A stretch of 64,000 nucleotides of DNA, taken from positions 2,967 through 66,966 of the forward strand of contig JBAYIK010000003.1 in assembly GCA_041665625.1 (NCBI GenBank). Reading direction: 5' to 3'. A model generated the notes under the pieces. That model did not search any database. It was not told where the DNA came from and was given only the letters and a program-made list of their open reading frames with translations. Of the stretch, positions 7,413 to 60,392 are shown piece by piece. A program made the translations under genes and the position numbers. Each line of letters starts with the position of its first letter. Position 1 is the stretch's first letter. Source of the DNA: Minisyncoccota bacterium (GTDB taxonomy: Bacteria > Patescibacteriota > Minisyncoccia > Phycocordibacterales > XYD1-FULL-46-19).

Positions 7413-7437
7413 CCGCCTAAATAAAGATCAAGTAAAC

Positions 7438-7475
7438 AAAAACTCCCCAAGATAAAGAATGGGGAGTTTTTGTTT
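7438..7475 (+). terminator. Rho-independent terminator
   Basis: AACTCCCCA-agataaagaa-TGGGGAGTT followed by TTTGTTT. Confidence 0.55.
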
Positions 7476-10989: not shown

Positions 10990-11013
10990 AAAGTAATTTA
11001 GTAAGACAAACAA

Positions 11014-11044
11014 AAAGAGAGGATAAAACCTCTCTTTTTGTTTG
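11014..11044 (+). terminator. Rho-independent terminator
   Basis: AGAGAGG-ataaaa-CCTCTCT followed by TTTTGTTT after the stop at 10989. Confidence 0.55.
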
Positions 11045-25194: not shown

Positions 25195-26706
25195 ATGGCT
25201 AATTTGCGAAAAATTTTAGCCCTGCTCGTTTTTGGATTTATCGGAGGAATTACCTTTTCGAGCTTTATCAATTGGGCCTTACCTTGGGTGGGGCTTTTTT
25301 TGCTTCTTGCTCTGACTTTTTTGATTTTATTTTTTCTTTTTGCGAGGCAAAAGTTTTTCTTAGCTCTTGCCATAATTTTTGTCGGGGTTATTTTGGGCCT
25401 GATCAGATTTAATTTTGATCAAAAAATTGAGACAGCTTTGCCTGATTGTTCATCTTCCGCTAGGCCCTGCCTCGCGGTAATTGTTGCTGATCCAGATCGA
25501 CGAGATGCTTCAACCAGACTAGTGATCGAGCTTTTGAGAAATGCGACCTCAAGTGAGCCCGAGGTCGTTTTTCGCAAAAGCTCGAGAGTTCTCGCTATTG
25601 TTGATAATTTTACGAATTATTCATATGGCGACAAAGTTGAGCTTGTTGGCAAGATCGAGCGCCCACAAAATTTCCTAACAGACCAGAATACTGTCTTCGA
25701 TTATCAAAATTATTTATTAGTGCGCGGAATAGAACAGACGGTTTATCAACCTAAGTTAAAAATTATTTCACGGAGCAACGGCTCAGCTGTTAAAACGAGT
25801 CTCTATTCTCTGAAAAATAATTTCTTAGCAAATTTGCGACGCGCTTTGCCCGAGCCCTCGGCCTCCCTTGCGGGCGGGCTAATCTTGGGGGATAAGGGTG
25901 GCTTGGGTAAGAAGACAGAGGATGAATTCAGAAAAGCGGGGGTCTCGCATATCATTGTTCTGTCTGGTTATAACATTACGATTGTTGCCGAGAGCGTGCT
26001 CTATTTTTTTGCCTGGCTCACGCCGGCTTTCTCTTGGCTGCTCTCAATTGGTTCAATTTTTCTTTTTGTCCTGATGACCGGCGGCGAAGCGGCAGCTGTT
26101 CGTTCGGCGGTAATGGGCGCCATCGCGCTTATCGCTCGGCGTTATGGTCGCACTTATGATGCGGGCGTAGCTTTAATTGTTGCTGGATTTCTCATGGTTC
26201 TTTGGAATCCTAGACTCCTTGCCTTCGACCTTGGCTTCCAACTCTCCTTCCTGGCGACCCTTGGTTTGATTTATTTGTCACCGGTGGTGGAGTTTTTTAT
26301 AAATAAAATCACCGGGCTTGTGAGAAGTCGCATTTCGGGCTCACTTGAAAAACGACTTCTCACAAGCCCGGCTCCCGAGCCTGTGAGAAATGCGACTTCA
26401 AGTGAGCCCGAAGTCGTTTTTCGCACAGGCTTCTGGTCTGGTTTGAAAGAGTTAATTTGCACCACCACTGGCGCACAACTCGCCGTCTACCCTTGGCTCC
26501 TCTACAAGATGGGCAACGCTTCACTCATTGGCTTCATCGCCAATATTTTCATTCTCCCTCCTATCCCTATCGCCATGTTCTTAAGTTTCTTAACTGGTAT
26601 CACGGGTTTCCTCTCAAATTTTCTTTCTCTTCTTATTAGTTACCCAACTTATTTCTTCCTCGCTTATATCCTCAAGATGGCTCATATTTTTGCGAGTTTG
26701 TTATAA
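25195..26706 (+). CDS. comEC: ComEC/Rec2-family DNA-uptake channel, membrane 'competence' domain (N-terminal fragment of a split comEC)
   Basis: LAGGLILGDKGGLGKKTEDEFRKAGVSHIIVLSGYNITIV matches the ComEC competence-domain signature. Multiple TM helices. The MBL domain is encoded separately downstream in another frame. Confidence 0.65.
   Translation: MANLRKILALLVFGFIGGITFSSFINWALPWVGLFLLLALTFLILFFLFARQKFFLALAIIFVGVILGLIRFNFDQKIETALPDCSSSARPCLAVIVADPDRRDASTRLVIELLRNATSSEPEVVFRKSSRVLAIVDNFTNYSYGDKVELVGKIERPQNFLTDQNTVFDYQNYLLVRGIEQTVYQPKLKIISRSNGSAVKTSLYSLKNNFLANLRRALPEPSASLAGGLILGDKGGLGKKTEDEFRKAGVSHIIVLSGYNITIVAESVLYFFAWLTPAFSWLLSIGSIFLFVLMTGGEAAAVRSAVMGAIALIARRYGRTYDAGVALIVAGFLMVLWNPRLLAFDLGFQLSFLATLGLIYLSPVVEFFINKITGLVRSRISGSLEKRLLTSPAPEPVRNATSSEPEVVFRTGFWSGLKELICTTTGAQLAVYPWLLYKMGNASLIGFIANIFILPPIPIAMFLSFLTGITGFLSNFLSLLISYPTYFFLAYILKMAHIFASLL
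25531..25580. repeat. ~50-nt palindromic repeat element, copy 1, inside the comEC coding sequence
   Basis: cttttgagaaatgcgacctc|aagtgagccc|gaggtcgtttttcgcaaaag has imperfect 20-nt inverted arms around a 10-nt core. It is read in frame as ELLRNATSSEPEVVFRKS. Confidence 0.6.
26314..26369. repeat. Palindromic repeat element, copy 2 (inverted orientation, perfect 17-bp inverted repeat)
   Basis: gggcttgtgagaagtcg...gggctcactt...cgacttctcacaagccc. The core gggctcactt is the reverse complement of the aagtgagccc core of copies 1 and 3. Confidence 0.6.
26380..26430. repeat. Palindromic repeat element, copy 3 (adjacent to copy 2, opposite orientation)
   Basis: cctgtgagaaatgcgacttc|aagtgagccc|gaagtcgtttttcgcacagg is read in frame as PEPVRNATSSEPEVVFRTG, almost identical to the copy-1 peptide. 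Confidence 0.6.
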
Positions 26707-26714
26707 TCAGAATA

Positions 26715-27329
26715 ATGAAATACCGTTGGGGTTTAATTTTTTTACTTTTTATTTTTACCATCACCACTTGGCTGGCAGTTTGGTGGGAGACACCCTCCAA
26801 ATACTTAACAGTAGATTTTCTCGATGTTGGCCAGGGGGATGCCATCTTAATCACGGCACCTAATGGCAATCAAGTTTTAATAGACGGTGGTCCGGACCGG
26901 AGCGTTATAAGGGCGCTCGGACAAGCCATGCCCTTCTTCGACCGTTCTATCGACCTTGTCTTAGAATCGCACCCCGACCAAGACCATATTGGTGGTTTGC
27001 CTGAAGTCTTTGATCGATATAATGTGGCTGGTTTTATCGAACCCCTCTTCACGGCCGAGACCTCTGTTTATAAAACTCTCGAGCAAGATGTGACCCAAGA
27101 AAAATCTTCTCATCTTATCGCCAAGAATGGGACAAAAATTACTTTAAGCCCTGGTGTCTATCTCAATATTATCGAAGCCCACCCCGCGACTTGGGGCCCG
27201 CGGGGAGGGAAGCCGGATTCTAATTATAGTTCAATAATTGCTAAGCTAACCTATGCCTCAACCTCCTTCCTCTTCATGGGGGATGCGTCTCTTAAGTTAG
27301 AAAACCAATTACTCTCGCAAAATCCTTAA
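26715..27329 (+). CDS. comEC: ComEC metallo-beta-lactamase domain, N-terminal part, terminated by an in-frame TAA
   Basis: TM helix, then LTVDFLDVGQGDAILITAPNGNQVLIDGGP...ESHPDQDHIGGL (MBL H.H.DH motif). The ORF ends ...LFMGDASLKLENQLLSQNP* in the middle of the domain. Confidence 0.65.
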   Translation: MKYRWGLIFLLFIFTITTWLAVWWETPSKYLTVDFLDVGQGDAILITAPNGNQVLIDGGPDRSVIRALGQAMPFFDRSIDLVLESHPDQDHIGGLPEVFDRYNVAGFIEPLFTAETSVYKTLEQDVTQEKSSHLIAKNGTKITLSPGVYLNIIEAHPATWGPRGGKPDSNYSSIIAKLTYASTSFLFMGDASLKLENQLLSQNP

Positions 27330-27569
27330 GCTCTTAAAGCTGATGTTCTCAAAGTTGCGCACCATGGCGCTAAGAGTTCTAATTCCCTCGCTTTCTTTAG
27401 GGCTGTCAAACCAGAGTTGGCCATAATCTCGGTGGCTGAGAAAAATCGTTATAACCACCCAAGCCCAGAGACTATCGGCTGGCTCAAGATGGCTGGTATT
27501 CAAACTCTCCAAACCAAGGACCTTGGAACCATCAAACTAAAATCCGACGGTATTAGCGTCGGATTTTAG
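27330..27569 (+). pseudogene. comEC: In-frame continuation of the ComEC MBL domain after the TAA stop (ADVLKVAHHG... segment)
   Basis: The same frame translates ALKADVLKVAHHGAKSSNSLAFFRAVKPELAIISVAEKNRYNHPSPETIGWLKMAGIQT...GISVGF*. This is the conserved C-terminal half of the ComEC MBL domain, so the TAA at 27327-27329 interrupts one coding region. Confidence 0.55.
27539..27567. terminator. Bidirectional Rho-independent terminator between comEC (+) and rpmB (-)
   Basis: AAAATCCGACG-gtattag-CGTCGGATTTT is a perfect 11-bp stem with A/T runs on both sides. Confidence 0.6.
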
Positions 27570-29523: not shown

Positions 29524-29572
29524 ATTAGGGTGTTCGAAGTTGGACTTCGGGCACACTTGAAGTCCAACTTCT
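29524..29572. repeat. Perfect 13-bp inverted repeat (hairpin) in the rpsG-fusA intergenic spacer
   Basis: cGAAGTTGGACTTCgggcacacttGAAGTCCAACTTCt. Confidence 0.5.
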
Positions 29573-29584
29573 AACAACAAATCT

Positions 29585-34472: not shown

Positions 34473-34847
34473 ATGGAAAACGAAACAAAAACAACCAAAG
34501 CCAAGAAGCCCGCGAAGGCCAAGAAGGATGAGGTAAAAGAATTGGCCAAGTTGCGCATTCGTGTCTCAGCTTATGAGCACAAAGTGCTTGATGCTAGCGT
34601 GAAGCAGATTGTTGATACCGCGACTCGTTATGATGGTAAGATTGAGGGTCCTATCCCTCTTCCTACCGAGTTCAAGAAGTATACTGTTAACCGCAGTTCC
34701 TTCATCGACAAGAACTCCCGCGAGCAGTTCGAAATGCGTATCCATAAGCGCTTGATTGATATCTCTAACCCCTCTCCGAAGTTGATTGAGAGCCTTACAA
34801 ATCTCAACCTCCCATCCGGAGTCAACATCGACGTAAAGATGATGTAA
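34473..34847 (+). CDS. rpsJ: 30S ribosomal protein S10 (with a Lys-rich N-terminal extension)
   Basis: [23 protein letters not shown]...GPIPLPT...[12 protein letters not shown]. Confidence 0.85.
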
Positions 34848-34849
34848 AC

Positions 34850-34878
34850 AAAAAAGCCCCTCCGGGGGCTTTTTTGTT
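34850..34878 (+). terminator. Rho-independent terminator between rpsJ and rplC
   Basis: AAAAAAGCCCC-tccg-GGGGCTTTTTT. Confidence 0.6.
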
Positions 34879-34940
34879 GACATTTCTCCCTGATTTGTTA
34901 GTATAAATCAAAGCTCGTAGGGGCTATTATTTTTACTTTT

Positions 34941-37617: not shown

Positions 37618-39267
37618 ATGAAAAAATATATTTTAGGAGCCATCCTCGTTTTATCGCTGGTTGTCGTTCCTTTTGTATCTTCGGCTCAGACTTCTGGGAT
37701 TGCCCCCTGCCCGATTATCACGGTTAATTTATCTCTGGGTAGCACTGGGCCCGACGTCACGGCGCTTCAGAAGTATTTGATTGAAGAAGGCCTGTTAAAC
37801 ATAGAAGGGGGTGGCCCCACTGGCTATTTTGGTGATCTAACTAGGGCTGCTGTTGTCCGATGGCAGACTGATCACAACATTCTCAACGAGACTGGCTTCG
37901 GTCCCTTGTCTCGAGCCGCTTTAGACTCCCTCTGTTCTGTCTCAGGTAAAGAAATTTCTCCTCGCATCTCAGGTGTCTCTGGTCAAATCCAGGGTAAAAT
38001 TTATCCTGGGGCTTGGATTAAACTTACAGGGAATCGTTTGACGGCTGACGTACGTATTACTAAATCTGGTAATCCAAACATTGTTATCAAGCCTGAGGCA
38101 AAAAGTGTTACTTATTATGATGAGGGCCGAGAGAGAATGAGGATTGACTTCCAGCTTAGTTCCACCACTCCGGTTGGGAGCTACTATATCAATGTCTATA
38201 GTGCTACGGGAGTGAAGAGCCCAACAGTGCCTTTCCGTGTTGTTAAGAGGCCAGTGGCCGCCGACGGCCTTCTTGATCCGGTTATTGTCTCTGTTTCTGC
38301 CAGCACTACTGATATCTACCCTGGTTCATGGGTTAAATTACTTGGCAAAAGACTCAGTGGTGATGTTCGAATTACTAAACATAATTATCCCAACATCATT
38401 ATCAAGCCGGTGGCAAGAATTAATGCAGACGCCTCGAGGGTTGATTTCAAACTTCCTCCTGAAGTAACTGTTGGTGCTTACTATCTTAATGTTTACAGCG
38501 ATGTCGGACGCAATAGTAATACTATGCCATTGAGGGTGGTGGGCTCTAATTCTGAGGAAAATGTTCAACCAACAATTACCTTTGTTTCTCCAAGTGGAGG
38601 AGAAACATTTAAGTCAGGGCAACAAGTGATTGTTAGATATGATATGGCTAATTTCCTTCGAGTTGCTAACGTTCAAATTCAACTTAATAAAGGAGCTATT
38701 TATCCTGGGGGTCCTTATAACCCAGTGGGCAATGCTACTAATTATATGCCCGCCGGTCATTATACTTTTACTATTCCAGCAGATGCTCCTTCGGGGGATG
38801 ACTATAGCTTTATGATTAATTCTGATTACCCTAATACGGAAACTAGTGCTCATTTCCAATCGAACATTTTTAGTATCGTTGCCCCCGATACCTCTGCCTC
38901 TGGTAGGCCACGTATAGAGGGAGAGGTTCTTACTGGTGTCTCTGGTCATGGCACTGGCCATTGGCTTAGAATTCGTGGGGCTCGTCTGACGAACAATGTC
39001 GTTATTCGTAAATACGGCGGAACAGCCACGACAACTCTCTCTGGGGGTATCGTTTCTGGTGTTCCTGGTAATGCTGCCGCTTTCCTTGATATTGAGTTAA
39101 ATATCCCAGTTGGGAGCTATCAGCTTAATATAATTGGTTCTGATGGCACGGTTAGTAACACAGTAAGACTGAACGTCACAGCGGAAACGGCAAGCTCAAG
39201 AGCTAGTCAAATTGCAGCTGTCGCTAGCGCTATCCAGGCTCTGGTTGCTCAACTTAAGGTTCAGTAA
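37618..39267 (+). CDS. Secreted cell-wall-binding protein: N-terminal PG_binding_1-like domain plus three IPT/TIG-like beta-sandwich repeats; inserted between rplB and rpsS
   Basis: Signal peptide MKKYILGAILVLSLVVVPFVSSA. LSLGSTGPDVTALQKYLIEEGLL...GYFGDLTRAAVVRWQ matches the peptidoglycan-binding-domain consensus. Repeats begin YPGAWIKLTGNRLTADVRITK..., YPGSWVKLLGKRLSGDVRITK..., GHWLRIRGARLTNNVVIRK.... Confidence 0.6.
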   Translation: MKKYILGAILVLSLVVVPFVSSAQTSGIAPCPIITVNLSLGSTGPDVTALQKYLIEEGLLNIEGGGPTGYFGDLTRAAVVRWQTDHNILNETGFGPLSRAALDSLCSVSGKEISPRISGVSGQIQGKIYPGAWIKLTGNRLTADVRITKSGNPNIVIKPEAKSVTYYDEGRERMRIDFQLSSTTPVGSYYINVYSATGVKSPTVPFRVVKRPVAADGLLDPVIVSVSASTTDIYPGSWVKLLGKRLSGDVRITKHNYPNIIIKPVARINADASRVDFKLPPEVTVGAYYLNVYSDVGRNSNTMPLRVVGSNSEENVQPTITFVSPSGGETFKSGQQVIVRYDMANFLRVANVQIQLNKGAIYPGGPYNPVGNATNYMPAGHYTFTIPADAPSGDDYSFMINSDYPNTETSAHFQSNIFSIVAPDTSASGRPRIEGEVLTGVSGHGTGHWLRIRGARLTNNVVIRKYGGTATTTLSGGIVSGVPGNAAAFLDIELNIPVGSYQLNIIGSDGTVSNTVRLNVTAETASSRASQIAAVASAIQALVAQLKVQ

Positions 39268-39277
39268 GTTAATTTAG

Positions 39278-39322
39278 AAAACCGCCCAGGCCTCGGGAAA
39301 CCAGAGGTCTGGGCGGTTTTTT
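39278..39322 (+). terminator. Rho-independent terminator
   Basis: AAACCGCCCAGG...CCTGGGCGGTTTTTT. Confidence 0.55.
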
Positions 39323-44619: not shown

Positions 44620-44644
44620 GTTTAGCTAAAATTAAGAAGGAACA

Positions 44645-44675
44645 GAAAAAGACGAGGCTGAAGCTCGTCTTTTTC
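44645..44675 (+). terminator. Rho-independent terminator
   Basis: GACGAG-gctgaag-CTCGTC followed by TTTTTCTGTT. Confidence 0.5.
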
Positions 44676-44690
44676 TGTTATAATAAAAGT

Positions 44691-58283: not shown

Positions 58284-58294
58284 AATATTAAAAA

Positions 58295-58330
58295 CAAAAA
58301 CCCCGCTAGGCAGCGGGGTTTTTGTTTTGA
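58295..58330. terminator. Bidirectional Rho-independent terminator between convergent genes
   Basis: AAAAACCCCGCT-aggc-AGCGGGGTTTTTGTTTT. Confidence 0.65.
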
Positions 58331-58344
58331 TTAAAATTTGAAGT

Positions 58345-59993: not shown

Positions 59994-60392
59994 GGGTATG
60001 TAACGGTATCGACAGGTAGTTTGTCGTTAGCTGTGTATGTGGAGATGTCGACTTCCTCCTTAAATTGTCGGCAAAAACGTTAAATGCCAACGCATCTAAC
60101 AAGGGACTTGTGGCTTCGCCATATTTCTCTCCAGCCTTCGCTTTAGCCTAGTGCTGGTGTTCGTTTGAATCGCAGTCTGGATGACTCAAACGGGCATAAT
60201 AAATTCTGGACTAGCAAGTGGAAATTTCTCGGTCCACAAGCAAAACTAAGAGAATCGACTACTTAAGCTCTTGGTTATTTCTGACTTAAGTAATTTAAAA
60301 TTATCTTCGGATAATCTGAATTAACCTAAACATATAGATTCGCTAGGGATTGCTATTTGCACGGGAGTTCGACTCTCCCCATATCCACCACT
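59994..60392 (+). ncRNA. ssrA: tmRNA (transfer-messenger RNA, ssrA), immediately downstream of smpB
   Basis: The 5' end GGGUAUGUAACGGUAUCGACAGG resembles the conserved tmRNA 5' motif (GGGG.UGAUUCUGGAUUCGACGGG). The 3' end has a T-arm GGGAG-UUCGACU-CUCCC, acceptor strand CAUAUCC pairing with the 5' GGGUAUG, and a CCA. A candidate tag ORF GCC AAC GCA ... TTA GCC TAG (ANASNKGLVASPYFSPAFALA*) lies at 60086-60151. Confidence 0.6.

Follow-up and report, generated by a model that had tools for sequence, protein, structure and literature searches.

A two-gene ComEC unit in a Minisyncoccota genome, with a probable recent nonsense mutation in the nuclease gene and translated hairpin repeats resembling Rickettsia palindromic elements

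The subject of this analysis is a DNA-uptake locus within a 64,000-nucleotide stretch of the genome of a Minisyncoccota bacterium (hereafter the window; positions 2,967 to 66,966 of contig JBAYIK010000003.1, GenBank assembly GCA_041665625.1). Two genes are located there on the plus strand, namely comEC (25195–26706), encoding the channel protein of the uptake system, and a downstream gene of 284 codons (26715–27569) for a nuclease resembling the C-terminal metallo-beta-lactamase (MBL) domain of ComEC, which is interrupted at codon 205 by a premature TAA (27327–27329). Furthermore, three palindromic hairpins belonging to a dispersed family are embedded in comEC (25526–25585, 26312–26371, and 26377–26432), and a fourth copy was identified in the intergenic region between rpsG and fusA (29529–29578).

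The comEC gene is intact, encodes 503 aa, and ends with its native TAA. Its product matched the Pfam families Competence (PF03772, E=9e-40) and DUF4131 (E=9e-13), both above the cut-offs, and thus features the combination of DUF4131 (OB domain) and polytopic Competence membrane domain by which ComEC/Rec2 proteins are recognized. The following open reading frame (ORF; 26715–27329, 204 aa) matched Lactamase_B (Pfam, E=2e-12) and is read in another frame. A previous interpretation made from the letters of this DNA only (the sequence-only reading) had described the locus as a fragmented comEC, in which the two domains occupy different frames and are separated by a stop. The arrangement itself was correctly described: the junction (26704–26717) consists of the comEC stop TAA (26704–26706), an 8-nt spacer, and the ATG of the MBL gene. 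Its interpretation as fragmentation was not borne out by the comparison with relatives, since the same TAA, 8-nt spacer, and start (ATG-AAA-TA(C/T)-CG(C/T)-TGG) were found in the contigs L009, L011, and L012. The relatives compared at comEC (L009, L010, L011, L012/L013, and P0006, the latter from gene calls only) encode ComEC proteins 69–82% identical to the one studied here. Close relatives feature a ComEC of approximately 460–520 aa (DUF4131 and Competence) and then a stand-alone 284-aa MBL protein, and a separate Lactamase_B gene of this size follows comEC in all five of them. In L010, a 268-aa gene on the minus strand is located between the two. Likewise, the best 120 homologues of the 503-aa protein were 320–532 aa long and contained DUF4131 and Competence only, with no MBL domain. 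In the search with the MBL protein, 7305 of the 8000 scored candidates reached E≤1e-20, and the 120 matches listed were stand-alone proteins of 264–312 aa. Judged from these comparisons, the reported frame break is a conserved boundary between two genes, and the two-ORF layout is predicted to be the ancestral state.

ComEC in this Paceibacterota lineage is normally encoded by two adjacent cistrons, one for the channel protein and one for a membrane-anchored 284-aa MBL nuclease. The same three modules (OB, Competence, and MBL) constitute the canonical fused ComEC, e.g., of Bacillus subtilis, and the motifs of ComEC-type MBL domains are common to both arrangements (HPDQDH as motif II, Asn at motif III, Asp at motif IV, and HHG). 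As in the close relatives, and in contrast to the fused protein, the MBL module here has a cistron to itself and is equipped with a hydrophobic N-terminal anchor. This segment (MKYRWGLIFLLFIFTITTWLAVWW), located at the very start of the MBL ORF, resembles a membrane anchor and would be expected to place the nuclease on the outer face of the membrane, which is where the C-terminal domain of ComEC acts (PMC8579336). A fused C-terminal domain is absent from about half of the ComEC proteins (PMC8579336). For annotation purposes, ComEC of the Paceibacterota is therefore best read as a two-gene unit.

The channel gene showed signs of strong purifying selection, with a dN/dS of 0.07 at a dS of approximately 1.1 in comparison to L009 and L010. 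It is free of frameshifts, and every residue that is invariant in an alignment of 100 sequences has been retained. Moreover, the AlphaFold2 model of the protein (computed with 100 homologues) achieved a mean predicted local distance difference test value (pLDDT) of 89.6 and a predicted template modeling score (pTM) of 0.85. Because of the low dN/dS, the retained residues, and the confident model, comEC is not decaying, and the channel gene is untouched. In one JGI scaffold (L104), a run of N at positions 813–822, corresponding to window positions 26030–26037, makes gene callers split comEC; a mutation as the cause of this split was rejected, and the run represents a scaffolding artefact.

As the sequence-only reading had noted, the MBL domain is cut by the in-frame TAA at 27327–27329, and the frame then continues over 79 further sense codons (ALKADVLKVAHHG...) up to a TAG at 27567–27569. 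In the NCBI metagenome-assembled genome (MAG), the two parts are annotated as a 204-aa product (MFA6476239.1) and a 45-aa leftover (MFA6476240.1), which should be regarded as two pieces of one interrupted MBL gene. The gene aligned to its 284-aa orthologues over 855 nt of codon alignment without a gap and is 94% identical to that of L009. The surroundings of codon 205 are locally variable, and its counterparts read CAA in L010, TCT in L009 and L012, and CCC in L011, so a single C>T exchange from CAA represents the simplest origin of the stop. Downstream of the stop, dN/dS values of 0.02–0.05 were obtained (in comparison to L009 and L010), and the changes assigned to the window branch comprise seven synonymous and no non-synonymous substitutions. 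This lack of decay indicates that the lesion is very young, not real, or read through.

Thirteen of the 37 invariant MBL columns are located 3′ of the stop, including H216 and H217 of the HHG motif and H248. The five metal-binding motifs are thus not contained in one polypeptide, those up to D190 being encoded upstream of the TAA, and HHG and H248 downstream of it. A split enzyme formed by re-initiation was considered and rejected, as the first in-frame start after the TAA is a TTG at position 27417, already beyond HHG. Since motif V (HHG) is lost and no start precedes it, the truncated 204-aa protein should be inactive unless the TAA is suppressed. Such a loss is plausible, given that a cultured Saccharibacterium was able to grow without comEC (PMC10633639). 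In summary of these observations, the TAA is most likely a real and very recent nonsense mutation, and this population of the Candidate Phyla Radiation (CPR) appears to have just lost its ComEC-associated nuclease and kept the channel, which bears on the question of how far these bacteria depend on DNA uptake. A 15-bp hairpin (27537–27569; CTAAAATCCGACGGT att AGCGTCGGATTTTAG) overlaps the MBL gene at its final codons and stop, and the C-terminus KLKSDGISVGF encoded beneath it is conserved in relatives.

Three other accounts of the interruption have to be weighed against a recent nonsense mutation. The first regards comEC as a pseudogene in decay, broken up by a frameshift plus a stop and overrun by repeats, as the sequence-only reading had suggested in proposing a decaying gene colonized by a palindromic element. 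The presence of two ORFs that do not share a frame, together with an internal TAA, is in line with this account, as is the dispensability of comEC in the cultured Saccharibacterium (PMC10633639), which makes its loss tolerable. However, the ancestral two-ORF layout, the comEC dN/dS of 0.07, the absence of frameshifts, the ungapped MBL alignment with no non-synonymous change after the stop, and an AlphaFold2 model that is confident outside the inserts all argue against it. The colonization was supported and the decay was not; as an explanation of comEC, the pseudogene is highly improbable and largely refuted.

Secondly, the TAA may have arisen by an error of sequencing or consensus building, or may belong to a minority allele, with the MBL gene intact in the cells. 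The missing decay 3′ of the TAA would be explained in this way, and one C>T change suffices. The DNA bearing the TAA was found to be 100% identical in four assemblies (the NCBI MAG, ENA ERZ27249449, JGI 3300037810, and Logan SRR18595301), and these may share the same reads. Against an error, the same base is present in four assembly pipelines or records, the site is neither a homopolymer nor a repeat, and substitution errors in consensus sequences are rare. Due to the agreement of the four assemblies, the assembly or sequencing error offered by the sequence-only reading is considered improbable.

The third account, namely programmed read-through or recoding of the TAA, had already been ranked as less likely in the sequence-only reading, and our results are in agreement with this ranking. 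It is favored by the perfect conservation of the 79 codons located 3′ of the TAA. On the other hand, TAA terminates 40 of the 57 ORFs considered in the window, no other window gene is interrupted in this manner, and in every other pair of neighboring ORFs sharing a frame, the second starts with a separate ATG no more than 36 nt after the stop of the first. In addition, relatives encode different sense codons (CAA, TCT, and CCC) at this variable position. A reassigned stop codon would be absent as a terminator and recur within many genes, neither of which was observed for TAA in the window. UAA is recognized by both release factors, and to our knowledge no reassignment of UAA is known in bacteria. 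Because of the frequent use of TAA as a terminator and the separate start codons of the other same-frame neighbors, recoding is extremely improbable, and the recent nonsense mutation is retained as the preferred explanation.

The three palindromes in the 5′ ORF, one of them inverted and all read through in frame, were described in the sequence-only reading and turned out to be slightly larger than reported there. Arms of 23–25 nt enclose the 10-nt loop AAGTGAGCCC in each of them. Copy 1 (25526–25585) is a type I element with arms of 25 nt and the loop on the plus strand. In copy 2 (26312–26371), the loop is on the minus strand and the arms are swapped relative to copy 3 (26377–26432), which is again of type I with the loop on the plus strand. 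The translation of copy 1 contains ...LLRNATSSEPEVVFRKSS... and is positioned between two beta-strands of the OB domain; copies 2 (GLVRSRISGSLEKRLLTSP) and 3 (EPVRNATSSEPEVVFRTGF) together fill a loop between two transmembrane helices, and RNATSSEPEVVFR occurs twice in the translated product. RNA folding energies of the copies ranged from -35 to -45 kcal/mol (z between -4.5 and -10.8 in comparison to shuffled sequences), with -34.9 kcal/mol (z=-6.5) for copy 1 and -44.9 kcal/mol (z=-10.8) for copy 2, and a hairpin of this size appeared in none of five trials with codon-shuffled windows. The exact loop 10-mer occurs three times in the window, as compared to an estimated 0.1 occurrences expected by chance. 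The ComEC model is weak only at residues 111–130 (between the OB strands) and 381–410 (between the transmembrane helices, pLDDT 53–60), i.e., at the insert sites, both of which were modeled as coil. Since the inserts coincide exactly with these low-confidence loops, they look like tolerated loop extensions in the model. A role of the comEC copies as terminators was rejected, as no T-run is present on the sense strand.

Regarding the geometry of the stems, arm-swapped isomers were observed for copy 2 (26312–26371) and at comEC site 1 of L009, where the loop keeps its orientation and the inner arms, 13 nt each, have traded places. Both isomers show the same stem irregularities (G.U and U.U) on the AAGTGAGCCC strand. 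Simple nested inversions do not produce this arrangement and were discarded as its source.

Searching for further copies of the palindrome, as the sequence-only reading had proposed, yielded a fourth one in the window (29529–29578, minus strand; nhmmer profile search, E=1e-7) as well as a dispersed family in relatives. The fourth copy is located between the rpsG stop (29510) and the fusA ATG (29585) and possesses the loop AAGTGTGCCC and the arms GAAGTTGGACTTC and GAAGTCCAACTTC, representing a different yet complementary stem; in L027, a hairpin copy occupies the same place upstream of fusA. Scans for the family covered a species-genome collection (seven loci, in Vogelbacteria/Paceibacterota MAGs), a metagenome collection (89 stretches), and viral contigs, in which the loop pattern had no match. 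Altogether, 87 distinct copies with usable flanks were obtained and distinguished into the following groups: type I (16 copies; arms GTGAGAAATGCGACTTC / GAAGTCGTTTTTCGCAC), type III (31 copies; arms GAAGTCNNACTTC, nearly self-complementary in itself), the GC-rich type IV (36 copies; CCCGCCAGACCTC / GAGGTSTGGCGGG), and four stemless sequences representing chance matches. Long ORFs harbor all 16 type I copies and 19 of the 31 type III copies, and the type IV copies are for the most part intergenic and often followed by a T-run. Approximately one hairpin per 16 kb is present in the window, and one per 10–30 kb on other contigs. No Rfam family corresponded to the hairpins at either gathering or E-value thresholds, where only sub-threshold look-alikes of miRNA precursors appeared.

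The putative host genes, as recognized from their translations, encode unrelated housekeeping proteins: cysteine desulfurase IscS (two sites), Dus, a PfkB kinase, MiaA, a 2-hydroxyacid dehydrogenase, enolase, leucyl-tRNA synthetase (LeuRS), DNA polymerase I (PolA), UvrC (three copies), RNase R, LepA, RNase HII, PrmC, and a DNA polymerase III delta′-like protein, in addition to ComEC. The hairpin core contains one frame with TGA per orientation, and copies in ORFs always use an open frame, encoding the peptides TSSEPEV or LQVSPK in forward and TSGSLEV or LRAHLK in reverse orientation. Since the ORF copies are always read in a stop-free frame, translational bypass of the inserts was considered unlikely. 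The family thus represents translated hairpin repeats similar to the Rickettsia palindromic elements (RPEs), dispersed over many genes and genomes and read in frame. A literature search for palindromic or in-frame elements in CPR bacteria, Patescibacteria, or Parcubacteria retrieved no description of them, which is not proof of novelty. Type IV hairpins (CCCGCCAGACCTC-loop-GAGGTSTGGCGGG; L014–L101) carrying the loop AAGTGAGCCC are mostly located between co-directional genes and are terminator-like. A terminator at 39278–39320 of the window, following a gene that ends at 39267, has a stem of the type IV kind and another loop (GGGAAACCA). In hosts on L016, L023, L033, L063, L065, L080, and L089, other insert peptides recur, namely KSDLATQSTTSH, TRSTSSGQA, and VRSPISL(H/R)EKRLLT, which suggests that these genomes contain additional families of palindromic inserts read in frame; the last of these peptides goes with a second loop type (GCGTAGCCA).

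Among known repeat systems, the RPEs would be the closest analogue. PMC10969869 describes them as palindromic repeats often found in frame within unrelated genes, where the insertion points agree with the protein fold. Both families share the dispersal, in-frame locations in unrelated housekeeping genes, a conserved peptide, additional copies outside of genes, and small host genomes (PMC10969869 for the RPEs). Stable dispersed hairpins, in-frame insertion with a conserved peptide, and fold-compatible sites (the latter for ComEC only) were all found here. However, RPEs are approximately 150 bp long, and membership of the families RPE-1 to RPE-10 is defined by sequence homology and lengths of about 100–150 bp, in contrast to the 56–60 nt of the present elements, which are likened to RPEs by behavior and not by sequence. 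The elements studied here also differ in their structure (one long hairpin, whose 10-nt loop is nearly constant and whose outer stems vary from copy to copy), in occurring in both orientations at a given site, and in residing in Patescibacteria.

With repetitive extragenic palindromes (REPs) and bacterial interspersed mosaic elements (BIMEs), the family shares short imperfect repeated palindromes, conserved stem irregularities, and some terminator-like copies at gene ends. REPs are characterized in PMC3733652 as extragenic and featuring a GTAG/CGTC head. In contrast, the type I and type III copies are mostly intragenic and translated, no GTAG head was seen in them, and no REP-associated tyrosine transposase (RAYT) was linked to them in the loci scanned. 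Because of their intragenic location, the hairpins are not REPs. [quoted passage not shown] Here, however, the whole unit is one hairpin; terminal inverted repeats on either side of an internal region were not identified, and as neither a target-site duplication nor a parent insertion sequence was found, the elements are not demonstrable MITEs. DNA uptake sequences (DUS/USS) are short motifs that occur about once per kb irrespective of the strand, in comparison to three exact and one near-exact copy in the 64 kb of the window, so the family does not correspond to them.

Comparison of comEC among relatives, as suggested by the sequence-only reading, revealed that the inserts are lineage-specific, being absent from the ComEC homologues P0006, P0007, P0013, P0020, and P0027 and from all distant ComEC proteins. 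The copies at the two comEC sites were found by gene homology and are thus free of the ascertainment bias of loop searches. Occupancy of the two sites among close homologues ranges from none through single to double. Site 1 harbors a forward type I element in the window and in L010, the arm-swapped isomer in L009, and a reversed copy in L012. In L011 (3330–3440), the reversed copy has a 33-nt palindrome (CCTGCCCGCAATGCTTTGCAACGCAAGGCAGG...) nested in frame in its loop, giving VRETTSACPQCFATQGRRGSPEVASLTG. Site 2 contains an inverted pair in most relatives, with loops exchanged for the second type GCGTAGCCA. Similarly, the same site in IscS, PfkB, MiaA, and Dus carries both orientations or both types in different genomes. 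The 56-nt element at site 1 of L010 is the one found as copy 3 at site 2 in the window, which points to copy/paste or gene conversion between sites.

The outer stems differ between copies and stay complementary. Apart from the arms that distinguish the types, each of the four bases occurs at five to seven outer stem positions across the copies, and these positions nevertheless pair within each copy; the observed value was reached in none of 500 shuffles. In an ungapped alignment of 44 sequences (A4), 78.8% of the cells pair, compared to 64.9% in shuffles; its covariation score was 0.375 versus 0.141 in shuffles and at most 0.115 with slid partners, and double changes were present in 18 of the 25 pairs. 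An A.G mismatch located 14 pairs from the loop is conserved. At comEC site 1, the window and L010 differ by three double compensatory substitutions and no single-sided one among 23 pairs, and the 44-nt core is 91% identical, as compared to 75–78% for the flanking coding DNA (dS about 1.1). Stem complementarity may be maintained by selection, or by self-correction of the palindrome together with gene conversion, and the data do not choose between the two.

These features lead to the rival view that the hairpins are not selfish DNA but selected cis-acting signals, in which the loop on its stem is recognized by a host protein. The roles envisaged comprise REP-like functions for transcript or chromosome, termination, a pause site, and an uptake or recombination signal. 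In favor of this view, the loop and its closing pairs are common to coding, intergenic, and GC-rich terminator-like copies, the stem changes are compensatory with a conserved A.G mismatch, elements are retained at orthologous sites (comEC, Dus, IscS, MiaA, PfkB, and rpsG–fusA), and conservation of the core exceeds that of synonymous sites in the host gene. However, both orientations have been observed at one and the same orthologous position, which means that the loop carried by the mRNA is not always identical; the loop also varies between orthologous comEC copies, and many close relatives are devoid of inserts. Moreover, the density of about one per 16 kb is far below that of known uptake sequences, and palindrome self-correction plus gene conversion can mimic selection. 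Selected signals of this kind are accordingly regarded as unlikely. In its broadest form, the proposal would be that the hairpin, with its AAGTGAGCCC loop and stem irregularities, represents a lineage-wide signal bound as folded DNA or RNA by a protein of the host or of a mobile element, which we put forward only tentatively and at low probability. If this were true, the hairpin would be held by selection even in essential coding sequence, flip in place, and double as an intergenic terminator, making it a counterpart of REP or uptake-signal systems in the Patescibacteria that is embedded in proteins.

Considering all results jointly, we regard it as probable that the locus represents a two-cistron ComEC with a recent nonsense mutation in the MBL gene and RPE-like hairpins in comEC. 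In this explanation, a CAA>TAA substitution would recently have hit the MBL cistron, removing motif V and inactivating the nuclease unless the stop is suppressed. Survival of a hairpin within a gene would require a length and frame that leave the ORF open, and the additional 18–20 residues or so encoded by its 56–60 nt would have to fall in a tolerant loop. Copies would be spread and homogenized by copy/paste or gene conversion, and the arms would be held complementary by palindrome self-correction or selection.

Several observations weigh against this explanation. The varied loops at orthologous comEC sites (AAGAGAGCCC, AAGGTTGCCC, and the second type GCGTAGCCA) indicate that the loop is not strictly conserved and that the hairpin is what persists, and as most copies were ascertained via the loop sequence, loop conservation appears inflated. 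The near-constant loop, the A.G mismatch, and the retention at orthologous sites also fit a selected cis-acting function. No transposase linked to the hairpins was detected in a regular-expression scan of 733 kb of loci, the sole IS200/IS605-like TnpA being that of L071, located approximately 1.2 kb from a hairpin and accompanied by different flanking hairpins. Neither were direct repeats observed beside the copies, the ends and target-site duplications being undefined without an empty site at the DNA level. As for the TAA, the possible sharing of reads among the four assemblies applies here as well, and a protein search yielded no intact MBL allele of the same strain, its best match being a protein of the L009 type with 94% identity. 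The L071 gene (1642–2073, minus strand) encodes a Y1 transposase of 143 aa (KYRR...DHIHL...RYIEWQ), and HicA/HicB-like genes are located between it and a type IV hairpin.

Provided that the two-cistron explanation with RPE-like inserts holds, translated hairpins in core enzymes such as polymerase I, LeuRS, enolase, and IscS would constitute a second, independent case, the first being that of Rickettsia, and the genome is a reduced one here as well. With them, the question of how palindromes persist, flip, and stay paired in coding DNA can be addressed in a tractable system. Furthermore, they are a possible source of part of the unexplained insertions in CPR proteins, and such elements confound homology searches and structure prediction.

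Some further features of the window were recorded. Among the 57 non-overlapping plus-strand ORFs of at least 100 aa, the stops are TAA in 40 and TAG in 17 cases, with no TGA; there was likewise no indication that TGA is read as a sense codon, and TGA thus appears to be unused in the window. Perfect intergenic hairpins of 16–22 bp with flanking A-runs and T-runs are located at 7434–7475, 11007–11044, 34842–34883, 44641–44679, and 58286–58333; they look like bidirectional intrinsic terminators, and their sequences are unrelated to the hairpin family. A tmRNA gene was identified at 59994–60390 (Rfam, 137 bits), with the tag peptide ANASNKGLVASPYFSPAFALA.

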